Below are positions 3,760 through 23,323 of a DNA stretch of 64,000 bases, piece after piece; the stretch's first letter is position 1; each line of letters opens with the position of its first letter. The stretch is from an uncultured Acidobacteriota bacterium. Lineage in GTDB: Bacteria > Acidobacteriota > Vicinamibacteria > Vicinamibacterales > UBA2999. The position numbers and the translations under genes were made by a program. The stretch lies in NCBI GenBank assembly GCA_963734095.1, contig CAVTGK010000055.1, forward strand, positions 96,900 to 160,899, written 5' to 3'. The notes under the pieces were generated by a model that was given only the letters and a program-made list of their open reading frames with translations, was not told the origin of the DNA and did no database searches.

Positions 3760-5068
3760 ATGACATCTCTTGCGATCGTATTACCCGTTCTGAAGTGTCC
3801 GACGTGTGCCACGTCGCATTGGCGGGTTGACTGAGACAACGGATCGGGCCGCGACCGTCACTTGCGTTGAATGTGCTCGCTCGCATCGGTTCGAGCGAGG
3901 CATTCTTTGGGTCAATGTGCTGGCTGAGCATGTCGACGCCGTTCGCGAGCGTCTCGCCGTGGCACCGACCGAGTTGGTGCCCGAGCTCGGAGGCTGGACG
4001 CAGCGGTATCAGGGCGTGGACGTGACCGATACCGCGCTCCTCAACGCGTACTTGTCCCTTCCGTACGGTGATGGGTCATCGCATTTCACCACCCCGGGTT
4101 ACTTCGCTAACGTGGGACGCTTCGCGAAGGAGTTCGACTTCATCGCCGGCCAGCTTCCGACACGTGGCTTGGGATTGGATATCGGCGCCGACGGGACCTG
4201 GTCTACCGCCAGGTTGGCGGCACGTGGCCTGACCTGTATAGCACTGGATATCACTGACCATCTGGTGCTCGGCGAGCTGTATCAGACGCAATACCCTGAA
4301 TACGCCCGGATGAACGTCGACATGCACGAGGACGTCTTCGTCGATAAGTCCTTTGACGTCGTCACGGCCTTCAATGCCTTGCATCATTCGAAACGGCTGA
4401 CCTCGATCGCTGAACGCATCGCGGCCGTTCTAAAGCCCGGCGGCACGCTTGGTTTCGTTGAGCCGTACGTTCAGAACGCCGCACAGGAGGACGCCTTTGG
4501 TGCCCCGCAGAGCGCAATCGGCATCAGCGAGAACATCCACACCATTCCGGAGTGGCATGATGCATTCGTCGCGGCTGGCCTGTCGCTGATTGCCTTCGCC
4601 ACGAGTGATGCGTTCAGTGCCATCTACCGGAAACTCGATAACGCTGAGATCGACAGGCGCGAGCCGCTGAGGATGGATGCCGACGGATGCTTCGTGCACT
4701 ATTATCAGGCGCTGCTCGACGCCGAACCGTCCGCCGTGTATGTGACGCCCGGTCAGGCGCAAGTCTTCCAAGTCAGGGTCACGAACAATAGCGCGGCGGC
4801 CTGGGCGACCCGTGGACCGCACCCAGTGGCCATCAGCTACCACGTCGAACGACTCGACGGCGACGGACCCCGGATGGTTGCGTTTGATAATCCTCGAACA
4901 TCGATTGATAGTTTCGTGGCGCCCAAGGACTCACAATTGTTCGAGGTACCCGTCCAGTTGCCGGAGCCCGGTGCCTATCGCATCGAGTTCGACCTTGTGC
5001 ACGAGTTGCGCTCGTGGTTCAAGGACAGAGGTGGCCGGACGGCGGTGGTGACATGCGAAGTGCGGTAG
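3760..5068 (+). CDS. Class I SAM methyltransferase with N-terminal Zn-ribbon and C-terminal Ig-like domain (frameshift near 3830)
   Basis: ATG at 3760 gives MTSLAIVLPVLKCPTC; the main frame has CVEC, LDIGADG, FDVV..FNALHH and LKPGG; C-terminal PGAYRIEFDLV. Confidence 0.75.
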
Positions 5069-5756
5069 CGCCACACAGCGCCATCACTCGATTGAGCGTC
5101 ACGCGCCGGTGCGAATCGCCGCAAACCGATCGAGAGCGTCGATGAGATCGGTCGGTTGATGACAAGACGTACGGCGTCTCCGGAGGAGCATCGTCGAACC
5201 GTGCGGCGCTGAAGCCATATCGTGCCCACGCAAACGCGCACCCCGCGGCGCGAGCCGTCGCCCAGTCGATGGGCGAGTCGCCGACCAGGATCACATCGCG
5301 GTCGTCATGCGCGAGCGCCCGTAGTCCCGCCGGGTCCGGCTTGCGGCCGTGTGGTCCGTCGCCGCCCACGACTGACTCGAAGTACACCGACAGGCCCAAC
5401 GCGTCGAGAATTTGCATCGACGGGGCCAGCGGTTTGTTCGTCAGGACCGCCATACGCGCCCGACGCGACGTCGTCCGCAGCACCTCTTCGATGCCTGGAT
5501 ACGCGACGGTGGTGTCCAGCAGCCGGCGGCGGTAGATCTCGAGAAACCGCTCGAGCACGTCCGACATCTTCGGCCGAAGGCCGGCGGCGTTCAGCGCCCG
5601 CTTCACGAGCAAGGCCGCGCCATCACCAACCATGCCGGCGACTTCGTCCTGCGAAAGCGGACGTCCGCCAAGGCTCGTCACCAGTTCGCTCACCGAGCGA
5701 GACAGGTCGGTCACCGAGTCGATCAGCGTGCCGTCGAGGTCGAAGATAACGAGCAT
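5019..5756 (-). CDS. gph: HAD phosphatase, phosphoglycolate phosphatase-like (3' end probably frameshifted)
   Basis: FDLDGTLIDS, LTNK, KPDP and GDS..D motifs. Confidence 0.8.
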   Translation of the reverse strand: MLVIFDLDGTLIDSVTDLSRSVSELVTSLGGRPLSQDEVAGMVGDGAALLVKRALNAAGLRPKMSDVLERFLEIYRRRLLDTTVAYPGIEEVLRTTSRRARMAVLTNKPLAPSMQILDALGLSVYFESVVGGDGPHGRKPDPAGLRALAHDDRDVILVGDSPIDWATARAAGCAFAWARYGFSAARFDDAPPETPYVLSSTDRSHRRSRSVCGDSHRRVTLNRVMALCGATALRMSPPPSGHLCP

Positions 5757-5767
5757 GTGAGGTTGAC

Positions 5768-6178
5768 TTACCTCGCCTCACCCTGATACGTCGCGAACGA
5801 CGTGGGCGTCTCCCACACCGTGACTTTAACCACGGGCAGCTTCTGCTCGCGAGCGTGATCGAAAATCAATCGCGCGATGCGCTCCACGGTCGGATTGCTG
5901 TCCACGATGAACACGGGCTCGTTCAACTGCTGGAGCGGCTTCACCAGCGGATCGTCGTGACGCAGGATCATCCGGTGGTCGAGCTCACGATCAATCCAAC
6001 CCTTGACGATTCGCTTGATGTCGCTGAAGTCGCACACCATGTTCCGGTTGTCGAGGGTTCCCGTGCGCACTTCGATTTCGGCCGTCGCGTTGTGGCCGTG
6101 CGGATGCTTGCAGATCCCGTCGTAATCGAGCAGGCGATGACCGTAACAGAAGTCGATTTTCTTCGTGACCGAATACAT
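5768..6178 (-). CDS. queD: 6-carboxytetrahydropterin synthase
   Basis: GHRL, CKHPHGHN, DF, LDH and PTVE motifs. Confidence 0.9.
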   Translation of the reverse strand: MYSVTKKIDFCYGHRLLDYDGICKHPHGHNATAEIEVRTGTLDNRNMVCDFSDIKRIVKGWIDRELDHRMILRHDDPLVKPLQQLNEPVFIVDSNPTVERIARLIFDHAREQKLPVVKVTVWETPTSFATYQGEAR

Positions 6179-6231
6179 GTGCCTCAGTGTATCCGCGGAT
6201 GTTCCGGGGATGTATTGTTATCGCCGGACCC

Positions 6232-6906
6232 GTGGATAATCTCGTGCTCCTCTCAGGTGGCCTCGACAGCGCGGTGCTGGTTGCCTTCGAGGCGCAGCAC
6301 AGCCGCGTACATCCCGTCTACGTGCGCGTTGGGCTGGCCTGGGAGGCCGCTGAACTGCGCATGGTGCACCACCTGTTGTCCTCGCCCGCATTTCGCGGAG
6401 ACATCGCAGATCTCGGGATCCTCGACTTCAACATGCGTGACGTCTACCCGTCCACTCACTGGGCGGTTCGAGGATCGCCGCCGGCATACGACACGCCGGA
6501 GGAAGACGTCTATCTCGCGGGCAGAAATCTCGTCCTCCTGACCAAGGCAGGTGTCGTCGCGGCGTCGCGCAAGATCAATCGCATCGCGCTCGGACCGCTC
6601 GCGGCCAATCCGTTCCCCGATGCCACGCCAGAATTCTTCAAGACGATGGCCAAAGCGCTCTCGCTTGGCCTGGACCATCCCGTCGATGTCGTCACGCCCC
6701 TGATTGACCTCCATAAAGACGACGTGATCCGACTGGGGGCGCGCCTGGGCGTGCCGTTCGAGTTGACGCTCTCGTGCATGAATCCGACCGACAGCGCGCT
6801 GCCACTCCACTGCGGGCAGTGCAGCAAGTGCCGTGAACGGCGAGACGCGTTTGTCGCTGCCGGCGTCGCTGACCCGACGGCCTATTCGCAGCCGAGCCCT
6901 CGGTGA
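6232..6906 (+). CDS. queC: 7-cyano-7-deazaguanine synthase
   Basis: LSGGLDS PP-loop, GRN, PFPD, TLSC...HCGQCSKC.ER Zn site; GTG start at 6232. Confidence 0.85.
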   Translation: MDNLVLLSGGLDSAVLVAFEAQHSRVHPVYVRVGLAWEAAELRMVHHLLSSPAFRGDIADLGILDFNMRDVYPSTHWAVRGSPPAYDTPEEDVYLAGRNLVLLTKAGVVAASRKINRIALGPLAANPFPDATPEFFKTMAKALSLGLDHPVDVVTPLIDLHKDDVIRLGARLGVPFELTLSCMNPTDSALPLHCGQCSKCRERRDAFVAAGVADPTAYSQPSPR

Positions 6907-7973: not shown

Positions 7974-8076
7974 GTGGCTTCCGCCTTAAGAGCCTGTGAA
8001 TTTATCCTCTCGTGGCTTCCGCCTTCAGGCGGAAGTTGGGCGCGGGCATGATCTTCCGGCTGACGCCGGAAGCCAC
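7974..8076. repeat. REP cluster GTGGCTTCCGCCTTCAGGCGGAAG with AGAGCCTGTGAATT module
   Basis: Palindromic core in both orientations; near-identical copy at 27048-27146 and core alone at 45154-45173. Confidence 0.85.
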
Positions 8077-8118
8077 GGCAGAAACTGCCGTCTGCAGTAA
8101 GATCAAAATCGAGGAATT

Positions 8119-8575
8119 CATGAGATTCGTAGCCGTTGCTTTTTCGGCGTGTTTGCTCGCCACAGTCACCATCGTCGCGCAATCATCAACGCCAACCCTC
8201 GAGGTTTTCAAGTCGCCGACCTGTGGCTGCTGCTCGAAATGGGTCGATCACGCCCGTGAACACGGCTTTACGGCGAAAGTCACGGACATGCCGGACGCGG
8301 CGCTCGACGAGCTCAAGACCAAGCACGGCATTCCACGCACCGCGCAGTCGTGCCACACCGTCCTCGTCGGCGGCTACGTCGTTGAAGGTCACGTGCCTGC
8401 CCCCGAGGTGAAGCGGCTGTTGAAAGAGCGTCCCGCCATCAAGGGCCTTGCCGTCGCCGGAATGCCGCTGGGCTCGCCCGGAATGGAAGTGGCCGGTCAG
8501 AAGCCACAGACCTACAACGTCATCTCGTTCGACAAGGCGGGCGAGGTCAAGGTTTTCGCGACCTACAATCGTTAG
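8119..8575 (+). CDS. DUF411 metal-binding periplasmic protein
   Basis: SPTCGCC..W, SCHT, EGHVP and GMP.GSPGME motifs; signal peptide; GAGG RBS. Confidence 0.9.
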
Positions 8576-8688
8576 ACGTCGCTCGATTGTCTGATTTCGA
8601 CCTTGGCCTGCCTAACCGGCCGAATCCTGAAGAAGCTGGCCGGTCGTGTCCTGATGAGGTTAGAATTCCAAGCTCAACAAGACTGATT

Positions 8689-10941
8689 GTGCCCCTCGCA
8701 CCCGGAGCAACGCTCGGCCCTTACGAAATTGTCTCGCCCCTTGGCTCCGGAGGGATGGGTGAGGTCTATCGCGCAACCGATCGGCGGCTCGGACGCCTTG
8801 TCGCGATCAAAGTCCTGCACGTGGGCACCCATGCGTCGACGAACAGTCTGCCGCTGATCGAACGCGAGGCCCGCGCGGTCGCGGCCAACAACCATCCGCA
8901 CATCTGCACGCTGTACGACGTCGGGCAACACGGCGACCTGGGATACCTGGTCATGGAGTATCTCGAGGGTCGAACGCTGGCCGACGTTCTCCGGGCAGGT
9001 CCGTTGCCGCCCACCACCGTGGCTGCCTACGCACGGCAATTCCTCAGCGCGCTGGCCGCGGCTCATGCCAAAGGCGTGATTCACTGCGACCTCAAACCGG
9101 CAAATCTCTTTCTGACCAACGACGGCGTGCTCAAAGTGCTCGACTTCGGCATTGCCAGGCTGGTCGTTGCCGCCGGTCCGCAAGGTGAAACGCGGCTGCA
9201 AACCGGGCACGGCACGTTTTCAGGTACGGTCGGCTATTCAGCGCCGGAGCAACTGCGGGGCGAAGTGCTCGACCACCGAGCCGATATCTTCGCCGCGGGC
9301 GCCGTGCTCTGCGAGCTGCTGACTGGCCGTCCGCCATTCGCGCGCCGCACCTCGGCGGACACGATCAGCGCCATCCTGCACGATCGACCGTCGCCCTTGC
9401 CGGCACACGTACCGCCGGCGCTTGCGGCCGCCATCGCGAGGTGTCTGGAGAAGATCCCGGCTCGCCGCTTCGAATCGGCGGCGGCGCTCCTTGCCGCGCT
9501 TGCGTCAGATGAGGCCACGCCGCCGCCGGCGAGCATCCCAACGACCGATTCGCCGTCGATCGCGGTTCTCCCGTTTGCCGACCTCAGCCCTGATCGTGAC
9601 CAGGAGTACTTCTGCGATGGGATGGCTGATGAACTGATCGCCGCACTCATGACCCTCGAGGGCGTCCGCGTCGCTTCGCGCACGTCGGCGTTTCAGTTCA
9701 AGGGCAACGCGCAGGACATCACCGAGATTGGGCGTCGGCTCAAGGTCCGCAACGTCCTCGAAGGCAGCGTGCGGCGCTCGGGCAATCGTTTACGCATCAC
9801 CGTGCAGTTGACGGACGTGAGCGAAGGGTTTCACCTCTGGTCCCAGCGCTACGACCGGTCGCTCGATGACGTGTTCGCCGTCCAGGACGAAATCGCACAG
9901 GCCATCGTCGATCGTCTGAAGGTGGAGTTGCCCGGAAGCTCCGTCGGCAGTCTCGTACCGACCGCCAGCCGCAACGTCGAGGCCTACAACCTGTATTTGA
10001 AGGGTCGCTACTCCATTCGCAAGCTCACGAAAGAAGGCTTCGAGAATGGCATGACGTACTTCCGGCAGGCGCTCGAGTTGCACCCGGATTACGCCGAGGC
10101 GCATGCGGCGACGGCTCAAGGCTACATGCTGCTTGCGATTTTCTCGGTGGCCCCGCCCCGCCATGTGATGCCAATCGCCATTCAGTCGGCGATGCGTGCG
10201 CTCGAATTGAACCCGCGGCTCGCCGAAGGACAACTCGGGATGGCGTGGGCGCGTCACTGGTATGACTGGAAATGGGCCGAAGCCGACGAGTTCTACCGGC
10301 GAGCCGTGGAGCTGACCCCCGGCGACAGCTGGCCCCGGATGTGTTATGCCACGTACCTCGGGTTGCGCGGCCGGTACGACGAAGCCATCGCGGAAGCGCG
10401 ACAGGCCACCGAGCTGGATCCCGTCTCCGCCATTATCAGTCGCGGTGTGTCTGACGTCCTGACGATGGGGCGGCGGTTCGACGAGGCGATCGAACACGCC
10501 ACGAAGGCGATTGCGTTGGAGCCGTCGTTCTCCTCGTTGTATTGGTCGCTGGCACTCGCTCAAGCTGGCAACGGACTCTACTCGGACGCCGTCGCGACGC
10601 TGGAGCAAGGTCATCGCTACGGTCAAGGCGACGCCACGCTGGAAAGTTTTCTCGGATGGGCCTACGGGCGCGCCGGCGCCCGCGACAAGGCGTTGGCCGT
10701 GGCGCGGGAACTCGAGACGCGCCGGCAGACGACCTACGTCAACGGCACCTGCATCGGACTGGTTCACCAGGGCGTGGGTGATCTGGACGAGGCGATTCGC
10801 TGGTATCGCCAGGCGTACCAGGATCGGGCCACGGACTGCTGTTCCTACGCCATTGCACCGCACTTCGATCTGATGCGCGAGGACACGCGATTCCAGGAGC
10901 TGATTCAATTGATCGAGGGCGGGGGCCACCGGACGTTGTGA
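8689..10941 (+). CDS. Hanks-type Ser/Thr kinase with TolB_N-like and TPR domains
   Basis: LGSGGMGEVY, VAIK, HCDLKPAN, DFG, APE; SIAVLPF..LS and TPR repeats. Confidence 0.92.
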   Translation: MPLAPGATLGPYEIVSPLGSGGMGEVYRATDRRLGRLVAIKVLHVGTHASTNSLPLIEREARAVAANNHPHICTLYDVGQHGDLGYLVMEYLEGRTLADVLRAGPLPPTTVAAYARQFLSALAAAHAKGVIHCDLKPANLFLTNDGVLKVLDFGIARLVVAAGPQGETRLQTGHGTFSGTVGYSAPEQLRGEVLDHRADIFAAGAVLCELLTGRPPFARRTSADTISAILHDRPSPLPAHVPPALAAAIARCLEKIPARRFESAAALLAALASDEATPPPASIPTTDSPSIAVLPFADLSPDRDQEYFCDGMADELIAALMTLEGVRVASRTSAFQFKGNAQDITEIGRRLKVRNVLEGSVRRSGNRLRITVQLTDVSEGFHLWSQRYDRSLDDVFAVQDEIAQAIVDRLKVELPGSSVGSLVPTASRNVEAYNLYLKGRYSIRKLTKEGFENGMTYFRQALELHPDYAEAHAATAQGYMLLAIFSVAPPRHVMPIAIQSAMRALELNPRLAEGQLGMAWARHWYDWKWAEADEFYRRAVELTPGDSWPRMCYATYLGLRGRYDEAIAEARQATELDPVSAIISRGVSDVLTMGRRFDEAIEHATKAIALEPSFSSLYWSLALAQAGNGLYSDAVATLEQGHRYGQGDATLESFLGWAYGRAGARDKALAVARELETRRQTTYVNGTCIGLVHQGVGDLDEAIRWYRQAYQDRATDCCSYAIAPHFDLMREDTRFQELIQLIEGGGHRTL

Positions 10942-11738
10942 GCGTCTCGCCTCGAGACCGTTCCTTGCTCATTGCCTGCGGGGCACTCCTTCTCGTCGCC
11001 GTTCTGGCTCACGTCTACTACCTCCTCGGCGGTGAAACGGCGTTCTGGATCGTTGTGACCGTGGCGATGGCGGCGTTCTGCTTCGTCAGTTGCATGCACG
11101 TGATGGGGCGGTCGGCGGCGCTGCGGTTCCTGGCGATTGGCGTCACCTTCGGTTTGTTCTTCGAAACGCTGTCGGTTCACACGGGGTTCCCGTTTGGTCC
11201 GTACTACTACACGGCGGTGTTTGGACCGGACGTGTTCGGTGTGCCGTACATCATCCCGCTGGCGTGGTACGTCATCGTCTACCTGTCGTTCATCATCGCG
11301 AATCTGATGGTCGAGCACCGGCCGATCGTCCATGGCAGGGTCGCGCAAGCCGTGTGGTTGTCCTTGATCGGCGCGGCGGTGGTGACTGCCTACGATCTTT
11401 CGCTCGACCCGTTCATGGTGACGCGCGTCCGGGCGTGGGTCATGGAAAACCCAGGCTCGTACTTCGGTGAGCAGTATCGAGGTTTCGCCGGGTGGATGCT
11501 GACGTCGTTTCTGATTTCCGTGACGTTTCGTCTGACGCAGCGTCAGGGTCAGTCGACTCCGGCGACGATTCCCCCGCTTGCCGCCGCCTATCCGGTTGCG
11601 GCGTATGGGCTGTGGTGCGTGTTCTTCGCGGTCGCCGGGGAACCGCCGGCGACGCGAGCCATTGCGGTGTTCGCGATGGGGATACCGACGCTGACCGCGA
11701 TTTCGGGATTTGCCAAGTGGACACAAGCCAAGGTATGA
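10938..11738 (+). CDS. CruF-like (DUF422) carotenoid biosynthesis membrane protein
   Basis: E.LSVHTGFPFGPYYYT, GVP..IPLAW and D...DP motifs; multiple transmembrane segments; GTGA overlap with the kinase. Confidence 0.82.
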   Translation: MSVSPRDRSLLIACGALLLVAVLAHVYYLLGGETAFWIVVTVAMAAFCFVSCMHVMGRSAALRFLAIGVTFGLFFETLSVHTGFPFGPYYYTAVFGPDVFGVPYIIPLAWYVIVYLSFIIANLMVEHRPIVHGRVAQAVWLSLIGAAVVTAYDLSLDPFMVTRVRAWVMENPGSYFGEQYRGFAGWMLTSFLISVTFRLTQRQGQSTPATIPPLAAAYPVAAYGLWCVFFAVAGEPPATRAIAVFAMGIPTLTAISGFAKWTQAKV

Positions 11739-14142
11739 CGTGGAGAACCTGCATCGCGGTGATCGTGGTGTGGCTCTCGTTCGCGCTCGTCAACGCTGTG
11801 GCTCAAACCCCAACGGCCGTTTCTGGCGAGGTGACACAGCGAGATGGGGCGCCGCTGGCGGGTGTGATGGTTCTCGTGCGCGAGACCGGCGCGCTCGAGT
11901 GGACGTCCAGCGACGGGCGCTACACGCTTGCCGCTCTGAGGCCCGGCACCTACACGCTGGTGCTGTCACTCGGCGGCTACACGGTCGAGGAGAAGGCAGT
12001 CGTGACTGAGGGTCAATCGATCCGGGTGACGACCCAGGTCGACTGGCCCTTGTCGTTCGTCGAAATGCTGGTTGTCAGGGCACCCTCGCGGCAGGTGGAA
12101 TCGCTTACCGATGCGCCGGCAGCGGTGACAACCCTGGATGCCGTCGACGTCGGCCGACAGTCGACGGGAAACCAGCTGCCGCTGCTGCTCGCGGCTGCGC
12201 CCGGCGTGCAAGTTGCCCAGAGCGGTCTCTACGATTTCGCGGTCAACGCGCGCGGATTCAATGACTTCAACAACCGGCGCGTCCGCACGGAAGTCGATGG
12301 ACGCGATGCGTCGATGCCGCAGGTCACGGGATACACCGATTGGGGGTCGCTGGCGTTCGGGCTCGGGGAAGTCGAGCGGATCGAGTTCGTGCGAGGACCC
12401 GGGGGCGCGTTATACGGCATGGGTGCGCTCAACGGCGTGCTGAGCATTCAGACCAAAGCGCCCGCAGACAGTCTCGGCGGGCGGGCGCGATTCACGTTCG
12501 GCGAGCTCGATACCGTTCGCGGCGATGCCCGGCTGGCCACCGAACTGGGGAGCGGCTGGTACCTGAGAGTGCTCGGCGGCTACCAGCGCAGCCGGGACTT
12601 TGCCCTGTCGCGTGTCTCGTCCGTCGAATATGCGCCAGGCACGTTACCCACGGAGGTGGTACCCCTCATCACCGATCACGCCACGCTCGCCTTCGGCGGT
12701 GTGCGCCTCGACCGGAATGCTGCGAACGGCCGCCGCCTCGTCGTCGAGGCCGGTGCGATGGCGAAAGAGGGTCAGGTGTCACTGACCAGCCTTGGAAGAT
12801 ACCAAGCGAGCGACCAGACCTTCCCCTGGCTGCGCGCATCGTATGAGTCCCCTCGCTGGAACGTGCTGACCGCCTACACGGTCGCGGACATCCAGGACCA
12901 GATCGGCTTGTCCGCGGGTCAGCCCACTTATCAGTTCGCGACGAACTTCCAGGTCGACGTGCAAACCAATCGCACGTTTGCCGCAGGTCGCGGTCGTTGG
13001 GTCGGTGGCGGGGCCTACGGCCGGCAGAAAGTCGACTCGGCGGACCCTCAAGGGGTGCAGACCAATTACGACCAGCCCGAGACAGCCGACAACGGAGCTG
13101 TATTCGGTCAGATGGATTACCGCCTGACCGACAGGCTGAAAACGGCGGTCGCGCTCCGGGTCGATGCGAGCACGCTCAGCCGGACGACGTTCTCGCCACG
13201 CGCGGCGGTTGTGTACGACCTCGCGGCCGCGCAGCATGCGCGATTTGGATTCAGCCGGGCCTACAAAGCGCCTACGATCGCCGAGCGCCGGCTGCGTGCG
13301 CCGATTGCACCACCGGTGGACCTGTCCGCGTTGGAACAAGCGTTGTCGCCGGTGCTGGGGGGCACGTCGCTTGGGTTTGCCAGCGTGCCCTGTTGGCCGT
13401 GGGGAACGAGGAACTGGACGTCGAAGAGATCACCAGCTTCGAGGCCGGCTACAGCGTCGTCGTGCGCAACCGCACGTTCGTGCAGGCCACCTACTACCGG
13501 AACCACGTGAATACCTTTACGAGCGGACTCTTGCCGCAGGTGGGAACGAGCCTCGGGCGCTTGAATCCAGCATTTGGTCCCTACCAGCCGCCAGCGTCGC
13601 TCTCTCCGACGGCTGCCGCGATCGTGACCACCGCGCTCGCCCAAACCTTGCCGCCGCCGCTCTTTGCCTCGATGTCGAATCGGGCCGACGGGTCACCCGT
13701 TTTCGCGGTTCTGTCGCTGGCCAATTTCGGCGAAGCCGACACACAAGGGATCGAACTGAGTGCGTCGACTCAAATCAATGCCTGGCGCTTTGACGCCAGC
13801 TACGGTTGGTTCGATTTCACGATCAAGTCCGAAGCGCCGGATGTTCCGTTGGCCCCCAACACTCCGTCGCAACAGGGCGCGCTCGGCGCCGCGTACGTCA
13901 CGCCGCGATTCGACGTCGGCGCGCGCGTGCGGCTGGTCGACGGCTTCGACTGGGTCTCAGGTATCTACGCCGGACCGGTGCCCGGCTACGGCGTCGTAGA
14001 TCTACAGGCGAACTACCAGGTGACGAGCGCGCTGCAAATCGGCTTCGAGGTCGCCAATGCACTCAACCATGTGCACTACGAGATTTTCGGCGGCGATCTT
14101 CTCAAGCGGCGCGCGCTGGGTCATGCCACGATTGGTTGGTAA
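11735..14142 (+). CDS. TonB-dependent receptor with carboxypeptidase-regulatory-like N-domain (frameshift near 13390)
   Basis: Plug motifs NARGFN and RIEFVRGPGGALYG; barrel strands; terminal W; ATGA overlap with upstream gene. Confidence 0.9.
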
Positions 14143-14879
14143 GCGCCCGTCACTGGCGCGGCTCGCAGCGCTCGCCAACGCTGGCGGTACAGGTAGATGT
14201 AGGTGAAATCAAGGATTGCGATACTCGCGTACAAGAAGTAGAGCAGATGCGAATTCGGGGGCTGTGCGATGTGAGGTGCACGAAGCAGCGTGCCAGCCTC
14301 GCTGAACTGCATTGGCCACCAGATGTAGCAGAACACCGCGCCGGCGACGCTTCCGACCATCTTGCTCCACGCGGCAGCGTGGGGCAGGCCCTCGAGGCGA
14401 GGCCGTGAAAACAGCAGCGGAATGAACAGCAAGCTGAGGACGAAATTGATCAGGAAGGACAGGGCGAGGCCGTAGATGTCGTTGAAATACGTCGCGAAGC
14501 TGTAGAGCCCGATCAGGCTGGCCGACAGCCCCGCGATGCAGATCGTGTGGAAGTGTTCACGCACCCACGGGTTGGTTTGCCACCGTCGTCCGTAGAGGAA
14601 CGCTTGCGTCACGATGATGCAGTCGGCCAGGAACCACAGACGGTTGCCCCAGACGAGGACGGTTGCCTCACTTGTAGTGACCAGGTTGAAGGAGAAGATG
14701 AACTCCCACGAGATGTTGAGAAAGATGCACGCGAGCGGCACGCCGTACGTCTTCTCTTTGAATCCAGCCCTGAGAATCTGGACGTATGCGAGCGTCCATG
14801 CGCCGAACATCACCGCGCCAATGGCCTGGAGTGTCGGGGTCAGATCATGCGACAGGCTGTAGAGAAATGCAGCTCTCAT
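14121..14879 (-). CDS. Pyr4/PaxB/XiaE-type transmembrane terpene cyclase-like protein
   Basis: W...Y.....G...KTYGVP.....LNISWEF and W...D pattern, about 7 TM helices, 252 aa. Confidence 0.75.
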   Translation of the reverse strand: MRAAFLYSLSHDLTPTLQAIGAVMFGAWTLAYVQILRAGFKEKTYGVPLACIFLNISWEFIFSFNLVTTSEATVLVWGNRLWFLADCIIVTQAFLYGRRWQTNPWVREHFHTICIAGLSASLIGLYSFATYFNDIYGLALSFLINFVLSLLFIPLLFSRPRLEGLPHAAAWSKMVGSVAGAVFCYIWWPMQFSEAGTLLRAPHIAQPPNSHLLYFLYASIAILDFTYIYLYRQRWRALRAAPVTGAYQPIVA

Positions 14880-14970
14880 CCGTCCTTCAATCTTCGTGAC
14901 TTCGAGACTCCGTGGCCTCTTCTCTCACTCAGTGCGGCCGTAGTCTATACGTGTTGACGCAGAAGTGGTG

Positions 14971-16193
14971 ATGTCATCCGCACTCTGGACGGATGAATTT
15001 CTCACGCAGCAGCGGCAGCTTGCCGACCCGCTCGGCGACGCCGTGATCCGCGAAGTGTTCGATCGCGGAGATATCGGCGCATTGAACGACTTCATGGGCC
15101 GTCTCGTGCGCGATGATGAGATTCCCGCCGATGTACCCGAGGAAGTCAGAACGTTTCTGCGGCAGACATCGGCCCTGCCGAAATGGGCATGTGTTGAGAA
15201 GATTCGCGTAGCCGAGCGTCTCTTCAACATCTACGGCGGCGTGTGTCTCACGGCGCTCGTCTGTGCCAGCCTTCCTGAGTGCTACACGATGCGGATTGGC
15301 GTGCGCATCCTCGACCTGACCAGTCAGCTCGGCGTACAAAACGACGGCTGCATCAAACGGCGCATGGTTGGCGGTATGGGCCTCTGGCTCGAGCAAGCGG
15401 ATTCGGCGTGCGCAGACGCAGAAAGTCCGCCTGATCACGCCGCAATCCGCTTCGGATCCTGAGCGCCTGCAGGCCGGAGCAACACCAGCCGCCTCCCAGG
15501 CAGTTTCCGGCCTCGTGCCAGGCGCCGTGAGATCGGTGAACGATGTCGTCGACCGGCACGGATTGGACTGGCAGATCGATCGCGATGGAATGCCAATCAA
15601 CCAGGAGGACCTCGCGTTCACGCTCCTGACGTTCGGCCATGTCATCCCACGGGGACTACGGACTTGCGGTGTGAAACTCTCGAGCGCGGAGTACAAAGCG
15701 TTTCTACACTGTTGGAACGTCGTCGGTTTCGGGCTCGGAGTCAAAGAAGAACTGATGGCACACACTGAGGCCGACGCCATCGAATTGTTCGCCCGAATCA
15801 AGTCACGACAAGCCGGCCCGAGTGGCGCGGGCGCCCGTTGACTGACAGCTTGCTGAGAGTGGTGGAGAAAGACATCCTCGAGCTGCCGCTGCTGCGGCCA
15901 GAGGCGCCGATCCTCACGCGAATGCTCGTCGGTGACGCGACGGCGCAGATGCTCGGCCTCGACGTGCGGCATCCGGGAGTGGTTCACGTGGTCCACCGCG
16001 TGACGGCCGTATGCCTGCGAACACTGCAGGTTCTACTCAGCCCCCTTCGCAGCCCTTTCAGCCCATGACGCCGCCGGCCGCCTGGCTCGGTCGTAAGTTG
16101 GTCACTCGCTTGTGCTTGATGACCGATGATGGCCGGCCGCGCCAAGTGGCAATCCCCCTGGCTGCAGTGAATCAGGTGATCAGTGAGCCGTGA
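14971..16193 (+). CDS. MpaB/Lcp (DUF2236) heme oxygenase-like protein, several frameshifts
   Basis: ADPLGD, LP.W, SLPECY, QKVRLI(H)AAIR across a frameshift, PINQEDLAFTLLTF, W...G..LGV. Confidence 0.75.
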
Positions 16194-16265
16194 TCAGGGC
16201 GGTCGGCTGAGGGCCTCGCCGACGGCTTGCTTGATCATCCGGTCGCTTTTCGGGTATTCTCCGGC

Positions 16266-16289
16266 GTGGTTTTGACTATTCAAAACCAC
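16266..16289. promoter_or_regulatory. Palindromic operator GTGGTTTTGACTATTCAAAACCAC, candidate DtxR/MntR box
   Basis: 24-bp inverted repeat with one mismatched pair, between -10 TATTCT (16255-16260) and ATG 16295; same core at 20503. Confidence 0.7.
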
Positions 16290-16294
16290 AATCA

Positions 16295-17434
16295 ATGAGA
16301 ATCCGAAACGCGATTCGGCTCGCCGCTGCTGCGTCGCTGGTGCTGTCAGCGCCGGCGGGCGCGCAGACGTCTGGGACGGATCAGCCCCGAACGGGACCGA
16401 TTTCCGGGTACATGGAGGTGCACCTCAACGCGCCAGTGGACCGCGCGGACGGCGATCCCACGTTGGACTTCCATCGGTTCGTGCTGCTCTTCAGCCACAG
16501 CTTCTCGGATCGTCTGCGGTTCGTTGGCGAGTTGGAGCTCGAACACGCCTTTGTCGAAGGCCTCGAGGAGGCGGGCGAAATCGAGCTCGAACAGGCGTAC
16601 ATCGATGTGCTGACGCGCCCGTGGCTCAACTTCCGCGGCGGAATGGTCCTGACGCCCGTTGGCATCATCAACGAGCGTCACGAGCCGCCGGTGTTCTACG
16701 GCGTCGAGCGGCCCTTCGTCGACACCGTCATCGTTCCAACGACGTGGTTCGAGGCCGGAGCGGGTGTACACGGCCGGGTCGGATCGGCCTGGAGTTACCG
16801 CGCGTACGTCATGGCGCCGCTCGATGCGACCGAATTCACCGCCGACGAAGGGCTCCGGGGCGGCATTCAAAAGGGGAGTCGCGCCAACATCCGAAATCCA
16901 GCGCTCACTGGGCGAGTCGAGTTTACCGGTGTCCGGTCGCTGACGCTCGGCATCAGCGGCTGGCGCGGTGATGCGGGCTTCAACGTGCCACGGCTCGATC
17001 CAAAGGTCGGCGTCATCGAGTTCGATGGCCGCTACCGGCGCGCCGGATTCGAAGCGCGCGGACAGTTTGCGTACGTGACCATTTCCGACGCCGGCCGGCT
17101 CAACGATGCGTTGACGTTGCAGATTGGCGTCGATCCCAACATCGCGCGAGCACTCAGGGGTTTCTATCTCGAGGGGAGTCGATTGTTTGGTCTGCCGAGC
17201 ATCGGGCACGAGGTTGGTGTGTTTGCCCGCTACGAGAACTTCGACACCCAGTTCAAGATGCCGGACGATCGTCTGCCGATTCCCGAGTTCGATCGGGCTG
17301 CCTGGGTGGTGGGTGCCAGCTACTTTCTCGATCCCGACGTAGCGATCAAGTTCGACTACACCCATCAGATGAGTGAAAGCACACTGCGTCGTGCTCCGCG
17401 CACCGTGAATGTCGGCTTGGGCTGGTGGTTCTAG
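16295..17434 (+). CDS. Outer-membrane beta-barrel porin (OprO/P-like, metal-uptake associated)
   Basis: Signal peptide, DFHRFVL, ELELEH, ELEQAY, NERHEP and C-terminal GLGWWF. Confidence 0.75.
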   Translation: MRIRNAIRLAAAASLVLSAPAGAQTSGTDQPRTGPISGYMEVHLNAPVDRADGDPTLDFHRFVLLFSHSFSDRLRFVGELELEHAFVEGLEEAGEIELEQAYIDVLTRPWLNFRGGMVLTPVGIINERHEPPVFYGVERPFVDTVIVPTTWFEAGAGVHGRVGSAWSYRAYVMAPLDATEFTADEGLRGGIQKGSRANIRNPALTGRVEFTGVRSLTLGISGWRGDAGFNVPRLDPKVGVIEFDGRYRRAGFEARGQFAYVTISDAGRLNDALTLQIGVDPNIARALRGFYLEGSRLFGLPSIGHEVGVFARYENFDTQFKMPDDRLPIPEFDRAAWVVGASYFLDPDVAIKFDYTHQMSESTLRRAPRTVNVGLGWWF

Positions 17435-17436
17435 GC

Positions 17437-17862
17437 ATGAGGCTTCAAATGAGAGCGGGTTCTTCAGTCACACGCGCGGCCGCCGTCGTGGGCGCGGCGG
17501 CAATGCTGGTCGGGGCGTCTCCCGCGCCACCGTCCGACCGCGCGTTCGCGAGCGTGTCTCAATCGACACGTGTGGTAAACGTGACCGCCGAGCGCTTCGC
17601 GTTTTTTCCGTCCGAGCTGTCGGTTGATGTGGGGACAGAGATCGAATTCCGGCTCCGGAGCGAGGACACCGCTCACGGCTTTCGCATCCTCGGACAGTCA
17701 GTCGAGGTCGTCATTCCCAAGCGCGGACGCGGCGAAGCCACGGCTCGGTTCGCACCGCTGACGCCCGGGACCTACACGTTCGAATGCTCGCGCATGTGCG
17801 GCGCGGGTCACAGCTTCATGCGCGGCACGATCAGGGTGCGCGCGGCAAGCGATCAGCCATGA
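17437..17862 (+). CDS. Secreted cupredoxin with CuA-like motif
   Basis: AHGF and CSRMCGAGHSFM (Cx3Cx3Hx2M). Confidence 0.8.
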   Translation: MRLQMRAGSSVTRAAAVVGAAAMLVGASPAPPSDRAFASVSQSTRVVNVTAERFAFFPSELSVDVGTEIEFRLRSEDTAHGFRILGQSVEVVIPKRGRGEATARFAPLTPGTYTFECSRMCGAGHSFMRGTIRVRAASDQP

Positions 17863-19157
17863 AAGCCCTTGTCATCGCCGCACTCGTCCTGACGGCGTCT
17901 CTCGCGGCGCGATCCGCGCTCATCGCGCAGTCTGTCCGGGTAGGCGAACCGCTCGCGGGAATCACGAGCAGCCAGTTCGAGGAGTTCCGGCTTGGCCTCG
18001 ACGATTTTCTCGAGGTTGAAACCTCCGAGGAAGGGCTGGGGCCAGCCTTCAACGGCACGAGCTGCGCCGTCTGTCACAACGTGCCATCGGTCGGCGGCGG
18101 CGGAACGATTGCCGAAATTCGAGCGGCTGGCCGCGATTCGGCCGGACGCCCGGTCGCGCTTTCACGCGACGGCGAAACGCTGTTTCAACTGTTCTCGATT
18201 CCCACCCACGGATGCCAGGTGATTATTCCGCCCGAGGCGGTGATTATCGCGAGGCGGATTCCGATTCCGCTTTTTGGCGCCGGACTGGTCGAAGCAATTC
18301 CCGACGCGACGATCCTGTCGCTTGCCGATCCAGATGATCGCGACGGCGATGGCGTGAGCGGTCGGGCGTCCGTGATCCGTGACGTCGAGACCGGCGACGC
18401 GCGCGTTGGACGCTTCGGGTGGAAAGCGCAGCATGCCACGCTGCTCACCTTTGGAGCCGACGCCTATCGCAACGAGATGGGCATCACGAACGATCTGTTC
18501 CGTGAGGAGCTCGGCTTCGGCGTGAGCGCCGAGCAATATCGCCACTGCGATCCGACACCCGATCCCGAAGACTTGATCGACCCTGCGACACGGCGGCGAG
18601 GCATCGACAACTTCGCGTCGTTCATGCGCTTCCTGGCGCCGGTCGCGCGCGAGTCGCAGACGCCGGCGGTTCAGGAAGGCCAGCGCCTGTTTTCTGCCCT
18701 CGGCTGCGCCGCGTGCCACACGCCGAGCCTGGTCACGGGTCCAAGTGCAGACCGAGTCTTCGATCGCCAGGTGGTGGCGCTCTTCTCGGATCTCCTGCTC
18801 CACGATATCGGGACAGGCGATGGCATCCCGCAAGCGGCGGCCAGCCCGGACGAGATTCGCACGCCATCGTTGTGGGGTCTGCGCCTTCGCCGACCGCTCC
18901 TCCATGACGGCCGCGCCGCCACCATCGACGAAGCGATTCGAAGTCACGCCGGGGAAGCGCTGTCCACGCGACGCCGGTTCGAGACCTTGCCGGATGTGTC
19001 AGTGCAGGCGCTGCTGGCGTTTCTCGGTCACTCAGAAATCAAGGACGGAAACACGGAACACGGAAACGTAGCCACGAAGGGCACGAACACACGCAGAGGC
19101 GAGGTCAACGCGTGCGAAAGCGCTTGCTGCGCCACGGGGGGCGCGCGTCAGCCGTGA
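17859..19157 (+). CDS. Di-heme oxidoreductase family (DUF1111) protein; the tail runs into repeats
   Basis: GLGPAFN..SCAVCH, P.FGAGL, GRFGWKA, GCAACH, SDLLLHD, RTPSLWG and HDGRA. Confidence 0.88.
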   Translation: MKALVIAALVLTASLAARSALIAQSVRVGEPLAGITSSQFEEFRLGLDDFLEVETSEEGLGPAFNGTSCAVCHNVPSVGGGGTIAEIRAAGRDSAGRPVALSRDGETLFQLFSIPTHGCQVIIPPEAVIIARRIPIPLFGAGLVEAIPDATILSLADPDDRDGDGVSGRASVIRDVETGDARVGRFGWKAQHATLLTFGADAYRNEMGITNDLFREELGFGVSAEQYRHCDPTPDPEDLIDPATRRRGIDNFASFMRFLAPVARESQTPAVQEGQRLFSALGCAACHTPSLVTGPSADRVFDRQVVALFSDLLLHDIGTGDGIPQAAASPDEIRTPSLWGLRLRRPLLHDGRAATIDEAIRSHAGEALSTRRRFETLPDVSVQALLAFLGHSEIKDGNTEHGNVATKGTNTRRGEVNACESACCATGGARQP

Positions 19158-22960: not shown

Positions 22961-23323
22961 GTGTGCGGCAAATTAGTGCTGCTAGCGCTGTCGCTTGCCC
23001 TCGCGACTGGCTGCCGCTCTGGATCTCCCCGCGAGGTCGTCGTGATCGCGCGCGGCATGACGTTCGTCCTCGCCGATGAGCCCAATGTCCCGAACCCGGT
23101 GATTGTGTTCAAAGCGGGCGAGCACGTTCGACTCGTTCTGAAGAACGAAGCGCCAGGACTGCTGCACAACTTCCGGATTCCCGCGTGGCTCGTGGAGGTG
23201 ACACAGATTCGCGCCGGTCAGACCGCCGACGTCACATTCACTGTTCCGAGCGAGCCAGGGCGATATGAATACCTGTGTCGTCCACACGCCGAGCTGATGA
23301 AAGGCGTGGTCGAGGTCAGATAA
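22961..23323 (+). CDS. Cupredoxin lipoprotein (type 1 Cu)
   Basis: LATGC lipobox, HNF and YLCRPHAELM. Confidence 0.8.
   Translation: MCGKLVLLALSLALATGCRSGSPREVVVIARGMTFVLADEPNVPNPVIVFKAGEHVRLVLKNEAPGLLHNFRIPAWLVEVTQIRAGQTADVTFTVPSEPGRYEYLCRPHAELMKGVVEVR

Follow-up and report, generated by a model that had tools for sequence, protein, structure and literature searches.

Pyr4-like membrane proteins are described, in the available text of PMC13307353, as a family that uses an acidic residue as a Brønsted acid. As far as the accessible parts of PMC13307353 and PMC11109268 go, known members cluster with a prenyltransferase, a polyprenyl synthase and either an epoxidase or a P450, and the latter source describes how, in fungi, Pyr4 is paired with an FAD epoxidase. 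A 2026 survey (PMC13307353) kept 264 of 1107 bacterial candidates, those near terpenoid genes, with 69% Actinomycetota; MpaB, DUF2236, Acidobacteria and TonB go unmentioned in the portion of its text that was available. For the rubber oxygenase Lcp, the accessible sections of PMC5522427 assign roles to Arg164, Arg195, His198 (the proximal haem ligand) and Arg202. Arg164 and Thr168 are required for catalysis, not for haem binding, and conservation of Lys167 across Lcps is only 59%. The protein adopts a 3/3 globin fold resembling that of globin-coupled sensors (same sections of PMC5522427).

Here we analyze a locus from a soil acidobacterium, within a window of 64,000 nucleotides, by which we mean the whole stretch of DNA studied. 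In this organism, as in many phyla, a rubber-oxygenase-like haem enzyme and a fungal-type membrane "terpene cyclase" are encoded beside signalling genes. The enzyme pair in this setting suggests a so far undescribed device for lipid handling or lipid signalling.

Gene order, conservation and integrity of the locus

The block opens with a Ser/Thr kinase gene (8587–10941, + strand; 784 aa). Its soluble product matches Pkinase (1.3e-50) and TPR families by Pfam and has a middle domain and C-terminal TPR repeats. This is the first gene of a kinase–DUF422–receptor operon. Its TGA stop overlaps, as GTGA, the GTG start of the gene for a DUF422/CruF-like (Caroten_synth) membrane protein (10938–11738, + strand; 266 aa, PF04240), whose stop in turn overlaps the ATG of the TonB-dependent receptor gene (11735–14142, + strand) as ATGA, placing the receptor start at 11735. 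The gene for the Pyr4-type 7-TM protein (TMTC; 14121–14879, − strand; 252 aa, PF25129) is convergent, and its 3′ end overlaps that of the receptor gene by 22 nt. On its other side, an 85-bp divergent intergenic region (14880–14964), in which a simple scan found no sigma-70-like site, separates it from the MpaB/Lcp-type haem oxygenase gene (14965–16193, + strand). The genes and places noted in the original prediction are confirmed, as are its translational coupling and 22-bp convergent overlap, with the receptor start corrected. Its four family assignments (CruF-like DUF422, TonB receptor, Pyr4-type and MpaB/Lcp) all hold by Pfam. It had also reported no prenyltransferase or polyprenyl synthase nearby, and the ORFs scanned in window positions 1–34000 include none.

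Neighbourhood comparison identified all five genes, in unchanged order, in five related loci, L023–L027. The proteins are near-identical to the window's in L023–L024 and 49–63% identical in L025–L027, where full-length kinase orthologues (49–58% identity) occupy the equivalent position. These observations support the five-gene block as a conserved unit within the window's clade.

In the window, the oxygenase gene carries about 11 small deletions and is spread over at least four frames. The receptor is split over two frames near 13388–13391, a break missed in the original prediction that corresponds to a 1-nt deletion relative to genome G005, contig C21 and read contigs. If these breaks were real, the strain would be without module function and the locus a decaying pseudogene remnant. 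The deletions relative to G005 are concentrated: the 1.2-kb oxygenase gene has about 11, the receptor gene a single one, and the DUF422 and 7-TM genes are free of them, as decay could produce, and reads from other samples and related strains are no proof of the window strain's own DNA. However, the receptor and oxygenase are each one intact ORF in G005 and G007 (98% and 96% DNA identity), and short-read contigs from other samples contain the bases missing in the window. The real decay that the original prediction had raised against itself is not shown; the frameshifts are absent from these two relatives and from the short-read contigs. The assembly is 60.6% complete at 5.56 Mb, whereas equal-sized relatives reach 91–100%, and other genes are similarly shattered, such as SQS_PSY, in six pieces with stops, and a second MpaB on contig C48, in two frames. 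On contig C21 the assembly has a second copy of the locus, which contains the missing bases and, at other sites, single-base indels of its own (52 of 77 events). The most variable stretch has seven deletion events within 134 bp (15336–15469), which is a consensus-error pattern. The frameshifts in both genes are thus most likely assembly deletions, and decay in this strain appears very unlikely.

The 7-TM protein and its oxygenase partner

The 7-TM protein matches PF25129 (Pyr4-TMTC; 3.9e-19, 69.7 bits, cut-off 27) over profile positions 17–199 of 227, scores 68.1 bits in a genome-wide search, and has as its nearest Atlas clusters only PF25129 members. It is 100% identical in G005. The AlphaFold2 model (pLDDT 82.3, pTM 0.76) consists of seven long helices (residues 15–42, 49–66, 73–96, 110–131, 138–158, 167–191 and 210–240); there is no related solved structure for comparison. 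Across 13 sequences, down to 26% identity, W58, E59, G78, R80, D86, D134, N145, K173 and D224 are invariant. E59 lies within the NISWEF motif, and E59 and D224 presumably correspond to the catalytic Glu and Asp of Pyr4. E59, D86, D134 and D224 are kept also in P0181, a histidine kinase with the 7-TM domain as its membrane part and all invariant motifs retained.

Only the middle piece of the window's oxygenase matches Pfam (PF09995; 7.7e-07, 29.8 bits, cut-off 23), while the partners encoded in G008 and G004 reach 57.5 and 60.7 bits. The intact protein has 408 aa, as encoded in G005 (L019:10908-12134) and G007 (L020:8468-9694), and the G005 orthologue matches LcpK30 in the PDB by sequence (E 5e-17). 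The oxygenase model aligns with 5o1m_A over 393 columns, covering the whole Lcp fold (Foldseek E 2.6e-12, TM 0.72/0.78), and its second-best match is the haem-dependent t-anethole C=C oxygenase (E 0.013). R129, R160, H163 and R167 of the G005 orthologue align with Lcp Arg164, Arg195, His198 and Arg202, and these positions are invariant in 22 of 22 partner oxygenases. The distal Lys167 position is occupied by Gln. Thr168, which is kept in the window's clade, is replaced by Val in the clade that has two 7-TM genes. Judged by eye, the N-termini in the alignment of partner oxygenases show no hydrophobic or twin-arginine leader, and by the look of its N-terminus the protein is predicted to be cytoplasmic.

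To place this pair, 41 7-TM loci were gathered by two peptide patterns, and they are a biased sample for that reason. An MpaB homologue adjoins the 7-TM gene in 26 of them, spanning at least eight phyla (Acidobacteriota, Verrucomicrobiota, Myxococcota, Planctomycetota, Bacteroidota, Gemmatimonadota, Ignavibacteriota and Thermodesulfobacteriota). The same adjacency occurs in five of nine further carrier genomes from a PF25129-model-based sample of 401 Acidobacteriota genomes, in which the flanks extend only 1.5 kb. Since 15 of the 41 loci and four of the nine in the phylum sample have no adjacent MpaB, some of them on contigs that end near the gene, the pairing is frequent and not obligatory. 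The deepest split in the 7-TM tree has MpaB-adjacent rows on either side (8 changes vs 13.8 in shuffles), and the oxygenase tree recovers shallow clades matching those of the 7-TM tree. Six Bacteroidota loci have, in place of MpaB, a flavoprotein of 590–725 aa from the amine-oxidase/CrtI superfamily that resembles known families only in its dinucleotide-binding fold.

The DUF422 protein matches PF04240 (5.4e-34, 118.4 bits, cut-off 25) but scores far below the cut-offs of the NCBIfam CruF models (92.7 vs 154.7; 81.5 vs 400) and also below a further NCBIfam equivalog cut-off (54.3 vs 300). By hhalign it shows no detectable relationship with the 7-TM protein (probability 0.14%). It is restricted to the window's own clade (5 of 41 loci, L023–L027) and was found in none of the five other genomes with receptor/7-TM/oxygenase loci. 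DUF422 is a clade-specific add-on to the module. The original prediction had grouped three isoprenoid-acting families as one set expected to co-occur; the MpaB/Pyr4 pair does so frequently, but the triad is not conserved. The core kept across loci is the MpaB-like and Pyr4-like pair, together, in Acidobacteriota, with the dedicated receptor orthologue discussed below.

Among 190 neighbouring ORFs scanned in related loci there were no terpene synthases, polyprenyl synthases, UbiA prenyltransferases or P450s. In L029, L032, L033 and P0066, SRPBCC lipid-binding domains occur as fusions or as neighbours. The carriers probably have a C30 or C40 chain at hand, since their genomes contain two SQS_PSY genes in tandem.

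Import, signalling and possible function

Pfam places an N-terminal CarboxypepD_reg domain (4.4e-12), a Plug (9.7e-15) and barrel matches in both frames (2.4e-14 and 4.2e-19) on the receptor, and the chain terminates in IGW, with a C-terminal aromatic residue. Five genomes were searched for the best receptor match. In G008, G418, G060 and G004 it adjoins the 7-TM gene, with 41–49% identity vs 24–26% for other receptors; G302 is the exception. In some bacteria, proteins of 899–921 aa combine the 7-TM domain and a receptor in a single chain. Judged from these comparisons, the receptor is a dedicated orthologue belonging with the 7-TM gene.

This co-inheritance and the receptor/7-TM fusions are what would be expected of a catabolic or detoxifying uptake system, in which a terpenoid, quinone or carotenoid released by plants, fungi or other bacteria would enter through the receptor and be cleaved by the oxygenase. 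The membrane enzymes would then work up the fragments, either as a carbon source or to dispose of a toxic compound, and the kinase would only regulate expression. The nearest solved folds, Lcp and the t-anethole oxygenase, are catabolic C=C-cleaving enzymes, and the sequencing runs containing the window stretch are soil and rhizosphere metagenomes. Yet the receptor is present in only 11 of the 41 loci, and the 190 ORFs scanned beside the core include no dehydrogenases, CoA ligases, beta-oxidation genes or inner-membrane transporters. The oxygenase N-terminus shows by eye no secretion signal, unlike that of secreted Lcp, and the histidine-kinase fusion is hard to reconcile with catabolism. We therefore regard such a pathway as distinctly improbable.

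Signalling genes recur around the 7-TM gene. In 24 of 41 loci the neighbouring genes include at least one for a kinase, histidine kinase, cyclase or SpoIIE phosphatase. Ser/Thr kinases occur in 16 of 41, compared with about 14% of random 10-kb windows in the window's genome, a rough control that draws on one genome and sets it against related loci that are not independent. The proposed link of the locus to a kinase holds. Stress-related neighbours, namely a PspC-domain protein and a 1-Cys peroxiredoxin, recur in the Vicinamibacteria loci L047, L050 and L059.

Because the globin fold of Lcp is like that of globin-coupled sensors, and the oxygenase model aligns with that fold in its entirety, a sensing role for the haem protein in place of catalysis is conceivable. 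The MpaB-like protein would then be a globin-type gas or redox sensor, and the 7-TM protein a receptor or transducer for it or for an imported lipid ligand, feeding kinases with no lipid conversion. The signalling and stress-related neighbours and the use of the 7-TM domain as the membrane part of a histidine kinase are consistent with such a device. On the other hand, the catalytic Arg164 position is invariant and Thr168 is kept in the window's clade, the flavoprotein oxidoreductase of Bacteroidota fits a reaction step better than gas sensing, and the SRPBCC domains and CruF-like hydratase point to a small hydrophobic molecule. Pure sensing is unlikely, though worth keeping in view.

We instead favor, with moderate confidence, a two-enzyme membrane module, an oxygenase and an acid catalyst, that would act on a lipid, probably an isoprenoid, and be wired to signalling. 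The first enzyme would be a cytoplasmic haem b oxygenase of the Lcp/MpaB fold, whose solved relatives attack C=C bonds. The second would be the 7-TM protein, whose buried acidic residues may serve as Brønsted acid on the oxygenated or olefinic lipid in a cyclization or other rearrangement. The analysis shows family membership, gene order, conservation, the fusions and the conserved haem and acidic residues; isoprenoid chemistry we infer from the family names and from characterized members of the three families, and the substrate class, the order of steps and the signalling role are likewise proposals. With no precursor genes alongside the module, a common isoprenoid lipid, self-made or imported, is the most likely substrate. 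In the Vicinamibacteria-like clade the module would be extended by the dedicated receptor, which may import the lipid or a related compound, by the CruF-like membrane hydratase, which may add water to a remaining double bond, and by the TPR Ser/Thr kinase translationally coupled to the DUF422 and receptor genes. The product or its turnover would be coupled to signal transduction and would not feed a catabolic pathway. The interpretation in the original prediction is partly supported overall: import and remodelling of an external terpenoid fits the receptor, but its other suggestion, a signal sensed by the kinase, better fits the recurrence of kinases, histidine kinases and cyclases nearby and the fusion to a histidine kinase.

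Comparison with known systems

Like the Pyr4-like cyclases (fungal Pyr4; bacterial XiaH, TylF, GroF and ZigF), the 7-TM protein matches PF25129, is about 250 aa long with seven helices, has invariant buried acidic residues and is partnered by an oxygen-adding enzyme. In contrast to known Pyr4-like clusters, the locus supplies an Lcp/MpaB haem protein as this partner and has a TonB receptor and kinases nearby. The DUF422 protein resembles the CruF carotenoid 1,2-hydratases (PF04240; TIGR03460, NF045693) in its strong Pfam match, multi-pass membrane nature and equal length, but lies far under the NCBIfam equivalog cut-offs, and no carotenoid genes adjoin it. The oxygenase shares PF09995, the fold and His198, Arg164, Arg195 and Arg202 with Lcp (PDB 5O1L/5O1M) and fungal MpaB/MpaB′, the fungal MpaB being anchored to the ER according to the Pfam family title. 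However, only about 21–23% of residues are identical to Lcp, Gln replaces Lys167, and whereas Lcp is secreted and attacks a polymer, the oxygenase here shows no visible signal peptide and has an inner-membrane protein as its partner. A further parallel, in logic, is the fungal two-step system of FAD epoxidase and Pyr4 cyclase. In both, the gene for an oxygen-adding enzyme adjoins that for a membrane acid catalyst, and in Bacteroidota that enzyme is likewise a flavoprotein, while in most phyla the partner is instead a haem protein.

Gene organization and frameshifts

ORF listing and Pfam searches resolve five genes at the locus. On the forward strand, a Ser/Thr kinase with TPR repeats (784 aa; 8587-10941), a DUF422/Caroten_synth membrane protein (10938-11738) and a TonB-dependent receptor with CarboxypepD_reg, Plug and barrel domains (11735-14142) are coupled via GTGA and ATGA stop-start overlaps. 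The 7-TM protein (252 aa; 14121-14879) is encoded on the reverse strand, the 3' end of its gene overlapping that of the receptor gene by 22 nt, and 85 bp separate it from a divergent MpaB/Lcp-type gene (14965-16193, forward strand) that is broken over at least four frames. These results bear out the gene positions, order and family calls of the original prediction, which had proposed an undescribed isoprenoid-modifying system at 10938-16193. They also confirm the 14121 protein as Pyr4-like, with a match to PF25129 of 69.7 bits against a cut-off of 27. A single split in the receptor gene, near 13390, had been missed. A simple promoter scan of 8300-16400 gave no sigma-70-like site; terminator-like sites were uninformative.

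Copper- or redox-flavoured genes surround the cassette (8012-8575, 16295-19157 and 22961-23323). These comprise DUF411 upstream; a 379-aa barrel-like protein, a cupredoxin and a di-haem DHOR oxidoreductase downstream; and a second cupredoxin. The barrel-like protein is without a Pfam family and ends in GWWF. All five are retained in the close relatives G005 and G007 and on contig C21 of the same assembly, and not in more distant carriers. DUF411, the barrel-like protein, the first cupredoxin and DHOR, which are missing from the homologous loci L025-L028, are not counted as members of the system.

Nearby relatives of the window genome are Vicinamibacteria, and at the locus the same-genus genomes G005 and G007 are 98.0% and ~96% identical in DNA. 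The receptor and the 408-aa oxygenase are each one intact ORF in both. Aligned to G005, the window lacks 1 nt at 13391, 17 nt in seven events at 15336-15469 and single bases at 15839, 16047, 16154 and 16164; the DUF422 and 7-TM genes are free of indels. Contig C21 (10.6 kb; L008, 1-10613) is, over its whole length, a reverse-oriented copy of window 8581-19107 at 93-94% identity; the two differ by 717 mismatches and 77 indel events, 52 of them 1 nt. It holds the bases missing from the window and has single-base indels of its own elsewhere; of all the events, three fall in its 7-TM gene. It is more probably a strain variant binned together with the main genome, or an ill-polished duplicate, than a true paralogue. 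The insertions relative to the window are also seen in short-read contigs that are 90-99% alike (mostly at least 95%) and come from two DNA studies and one study of RNA libraries. Twelve of them are listed at 15338-15465; every record that crosses 13390 has one gap, and records spanning 15616-16158 have two. Contigs from RNA libraries (X3, X4) span DUF422, the receptor and the oxygenase, and the 7-TM gene in part. They give only a weak hint of expression, because DNA carry-over is possible, and stretches that they do not span carry no information.

Other genes of the assembly (5.56 Mb, 69 contigs, 64.6% G+C) are broken as well. The tandem SQS_PSY genes (C44, 181032-182579) are broken into six pieces that contain in-frame stops, and another gene of the MpaB family (C48, 57359-58064) is spread over two frames. 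This adds to the signs of many indel errors in the assembly and fits its completeness of 60.6%. From these alignments we read the window frameshifts as consensus deletions. The alternative raised with the original prediction, that the oxygenase frameshifts are real and the locus is decaying in the window strain, is disfavoured by the intact ORFs in both relatives and the presence of the missing bases in C21 and the short-read contigs; we consider it improbable. In annotation, frameshifts in this assembly should not be taken for pseudogenes. Protein analyses were run on the intact G005 orthologues, not on mended window sequences.

Conservation of the 7-TM gene and its partners

A pattern scan of one genome per species (185,579 species) yielded 41 loci around homologues of the 7-TM gene. 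An MpaB homologue lies beside it in 26 of these, either divergent from the 7-TM gene, co-directional with it, or downstream of a pair of 7-TM genes. A TonB receptor is present at 11 of the 41, and DUF422 at five, all in the clade of the window (L023-L027); none of five other carrier genomes has DUF422. L025-L027 have all five genes of the window block, with protein identities of 46-63% (7-TM protein 57-63%, oxygenase 46-63%). The predicted co-occurrence of isoprenoid genes thus stands for the oxygenase and, in L025-L027, for the whole block, whereas DUF422 is limited to L023-L027.

In an independent sample based on the PF25129 model, only 10 of 401 Acidobacteriota genomes carry the 7-TM gene, which is therefore a rare accessory gene. 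Within flanks of only 1.5 kb, five of the nine other carriers have the oxygenase and two the receptor. Oxygenase-adjacent rows fall on both sides of the deepest split in the 7-TM tree; shallow clades agree between this tree and that of the oxygenase, whose deep nodes are unresolved. These comparisons show a predicted haem protein of Lcp fold and a Pyr4-type, acid-residue membrane protein that are inherited together. In four of five other genomes searched (G008, G418, G060 and G004), the receptor adjoining the 7-TM gene is the genome-wide best match to that of the window, at 41-49% identity versus 24-26% for other receptors. By this measure, it is a specific orthologue tied to the 7-TM gene. 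Nearly identical loci with the oxygenase, the 7-TM gene and a giant kinase occur in MAGs labelled Ignavibacteria and Verrucomicrobiota (Didemnitutus) (L062 and L063), which reflects either recent transfer or a binning error.

Features of the three candidate enzymes

The 57 clusters closely related to the 7-TM protein are unnamed and belong without exception to PF25129, and an exhaustive search of 1.84 billion representatives with a profile of its clade matched 1248 protein clusters (E ≤0.001). In an alignment reaching down to 26% identity, W58 and E59 (in NISWEF), G78, R80, D86, D134, N145, K173 and D224 are invariant. E59 and D224 may correspond to the catalytic Glu and Asp of Pyr4. An AlphaFold2 model shows seven long helices (pLDDT 82). 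We make no fold assignment, because the 7-TM alignment, used as a profile against PDB sequences, gave a chance match only (E 0.49) and the Foldseek matches to the model were weak, with nothing at E ≤0.001 and SWEET and cystinosin 7-TM proteins as the best (TM 0.45-0.5). The idea that the 7-TM and DUF422 proteins are two homologous 'membrane protonases' was dropped (hhalign family-versus-family probability 0.14%).

The oxygenase matches the rubber oxygenase LcpK30 at 5e-17 by sequence. Its model (pLDDT 80.8, pTM 0.85) aligns with the whole Lcp chain at TM 0.72/0.78, followed by a haem-dependent t-anethole oxygenase. In Lcp, His198 is the proximal haem ligand, and roles of Arg164, Arg195 and Arg202 are also described in PMC5522427. 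All four positions are invariant in the 22 oxygenases adjoining 7-TM genes that were compared, while that of Lcp Lys167 is Gln. No leader peptide was visible by eye at the oxygenase N-terminus, so, unlike Lcp, it is probably cytoplasmic. The DUF422 protein is a clear member of PF04240, the family of CruF, but it scores far below the NCBIfam cut-offs for a CruF equivalog.

Signalling context, possible function and known systems

A signalling protein lies among the scanned neighbours at 24 of the 41 loci. Ser/Thr kinases occur at 16, often as giant Pkinase-AAA_16-TPR proteins, histidine kinases at five, and nucleotide cyclases or a SpoIIE phosphatase at three. As a rough baseline from one genome, that of the window has ~82 Ser/Thr kinase loci, so ~14% of random 10-kb windows would hold one. 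In six Bacteroidota loci, a flavoprotein of 590-725 aa (amine-oxidase/CrtI superfamily) takes the place of the haem oxygenase, and in three of these (L054, L056 and L058) a histidine kinase directly follows; L054 is from a cultured organism, Dyadobacter arcticus DSM 102865.

Gene fusions give these links a concrete form, and the exhaustive profile search recovered some that a word-indexed search for longer relatives had missed (a false negative). P0181 (806 aa) is a sensor histidine kinase (HisKA and HATPase_c) whose membrane part is the 7-TM domain with all invariant motifs kept. The 7-TM domain is also joined to an SRPBCC lipid-binding domain (L033 and P0066), to Lgt (P0186) and to a TonB receptor in one chain (L029, L032, P0059 and P0120). 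The receptor fusions, among them those of two Verrucomicrobia MAGs (L032, 8013-10766; L029, 786-3539), are each one ORF of ~900 aa with a hydrophobic, signal-peptide-like stretch between the two parts. A chain that joins inner- and outer-membrane proteins is topologically odd; it may be cleaved, or its second part may start internally. The L033 fusion adjoins polysaccharide genes and a GAF-cyclase; its source, titled 'uncultured Enterobacteriaceae', has 69% G+C, for which the label looks wrong.

Together, these comparisons show that in Acidobacteriota the predicted oxygenase/7-TM pair comes with a dedicated receptor, and that the pair is often wired to kinases. The original prediction had left two functions open, import and remodelling of an external terpenoid or lipid, or a signal sensed by the kinase. 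The kinase context and the histidine-kinase fusion make a signalling role likelier than catabolism. Catabolic or detoxifying uptake is unlikely, and so is a pure haem or lipid sensor device. A two-enzyme lipid module coupled to signalling stands at about even chances in our judgement.

In such a module, the oxygenase would attack a C=C bond in a hydrophobic chain, either adding oxygen or cleaving it. The 7-TM protein would then protonate the product or a neighbouring olefin, leading to cyclization or rearrangement, and in the clade of the window the CruF-like protein might hydrate a remaining terminal double bond. Terpene synthases, polyprenyl synthases, UbiA prenyltransferases and P450s are absent from the 190 ORFs around the core in related loci and from the window ORFs scanned in 1-34000, where the prediction of no prenyltransferase or polyprenyl synthase thus stands. 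Since no precursor genes travel with the module, it probably acts on an isoprenoid that is either a housekeeping product or imported. Two tandem SQS_PSY genes are present in the carriers; the model used for squalene-hopene cyclase gave weak matches only (best 32.7 bits) and no classical SHC.

Other genes recur near the pair. A PspC-domain protein and a 1-Cys peroxiredoxin are found in L047, L050 and L059. GTP cyclohydrolase I lies directly beside the oxygenase in L040 (6082-6687) and L041 (6073-6678), and a pterin-4a-carbinolamine dehydratase (6335-6781) and a dihydropteroate-synthase-like/DUF6513 gene (4872-6338) lie beside it in L027. Pterin genes in two unrelated clades hint at a pterin-dependent reaction. 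This link is not seen in the genome of the window, because there, as in G005 and G007, the pterin-4a dehydratase lies away from the locus.

More tentatively, the 7-TM protein might serve as the input module for a so far undescribed type of lipid signalling in bacteria, which we regard as possible though doubtful. The oxygenase, perhaps a monooxygenase fed by tetrahydropterin as the pterin genes of L040, L041 and L027 suggest, would activate a polyprenyl or other unsaturated lipid, either the cell's own or one taken up via the receptor. The 7-TM 'cyclase' would bind and convert this lipid in the membrane, and Ser/Thr kinases, histidine kinases or nucleotide cyclases would respond to its turnover; the histidine-kinase fusion would then unite these parts in a single chain. 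Should the pair prove to make or sense an oxidised lipid, it would provide a new signalling input for soil Acidobacteria and several other phyla, a first physiological role for bacterial DUF2236 outside rubber degradation, and a new enzyme pair for terpenoid chemistry.

To our knowledge, almost all Pyr4-type membrane cyclases described so far come from natural-product clusters of fungi and actinobacteria. Pyr4-like cyclases, Lcp/MpaB oxygenases, CruF and TonB receptors are all known families; the genomic context is not. The literature searched held no published description of the MpaB/Pyr4-type pairing, and a bioRxiv preprint (P422) merely names DUF2236 as a known haem family. A survey of such cyclases in bacteria, published in 2026, deliberately set aside every candidate that had no terpenoid genes in its neighbourhood, which left 264 of 1107 (69% Actinomycetota; PMC13307353). 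It makes no mention of MpaB, DUF2236, Acidobacteria or TonB, though the candidates in its supplementary Table S2 may include this clade. The present locus belongs to the majority set aside for want of nearby terpenoid genes. This neglected group has a conserved logic of its own, with a haem oxygenase partner, a dedicated outer-membrane receptor, kinase neighbours, and receptor and histidine-kinase fusions. By analogy, the oxygenase and the 7-TM protein may follow the same two-step logic as the fungal pairing of an epoxidase with Pyr4.
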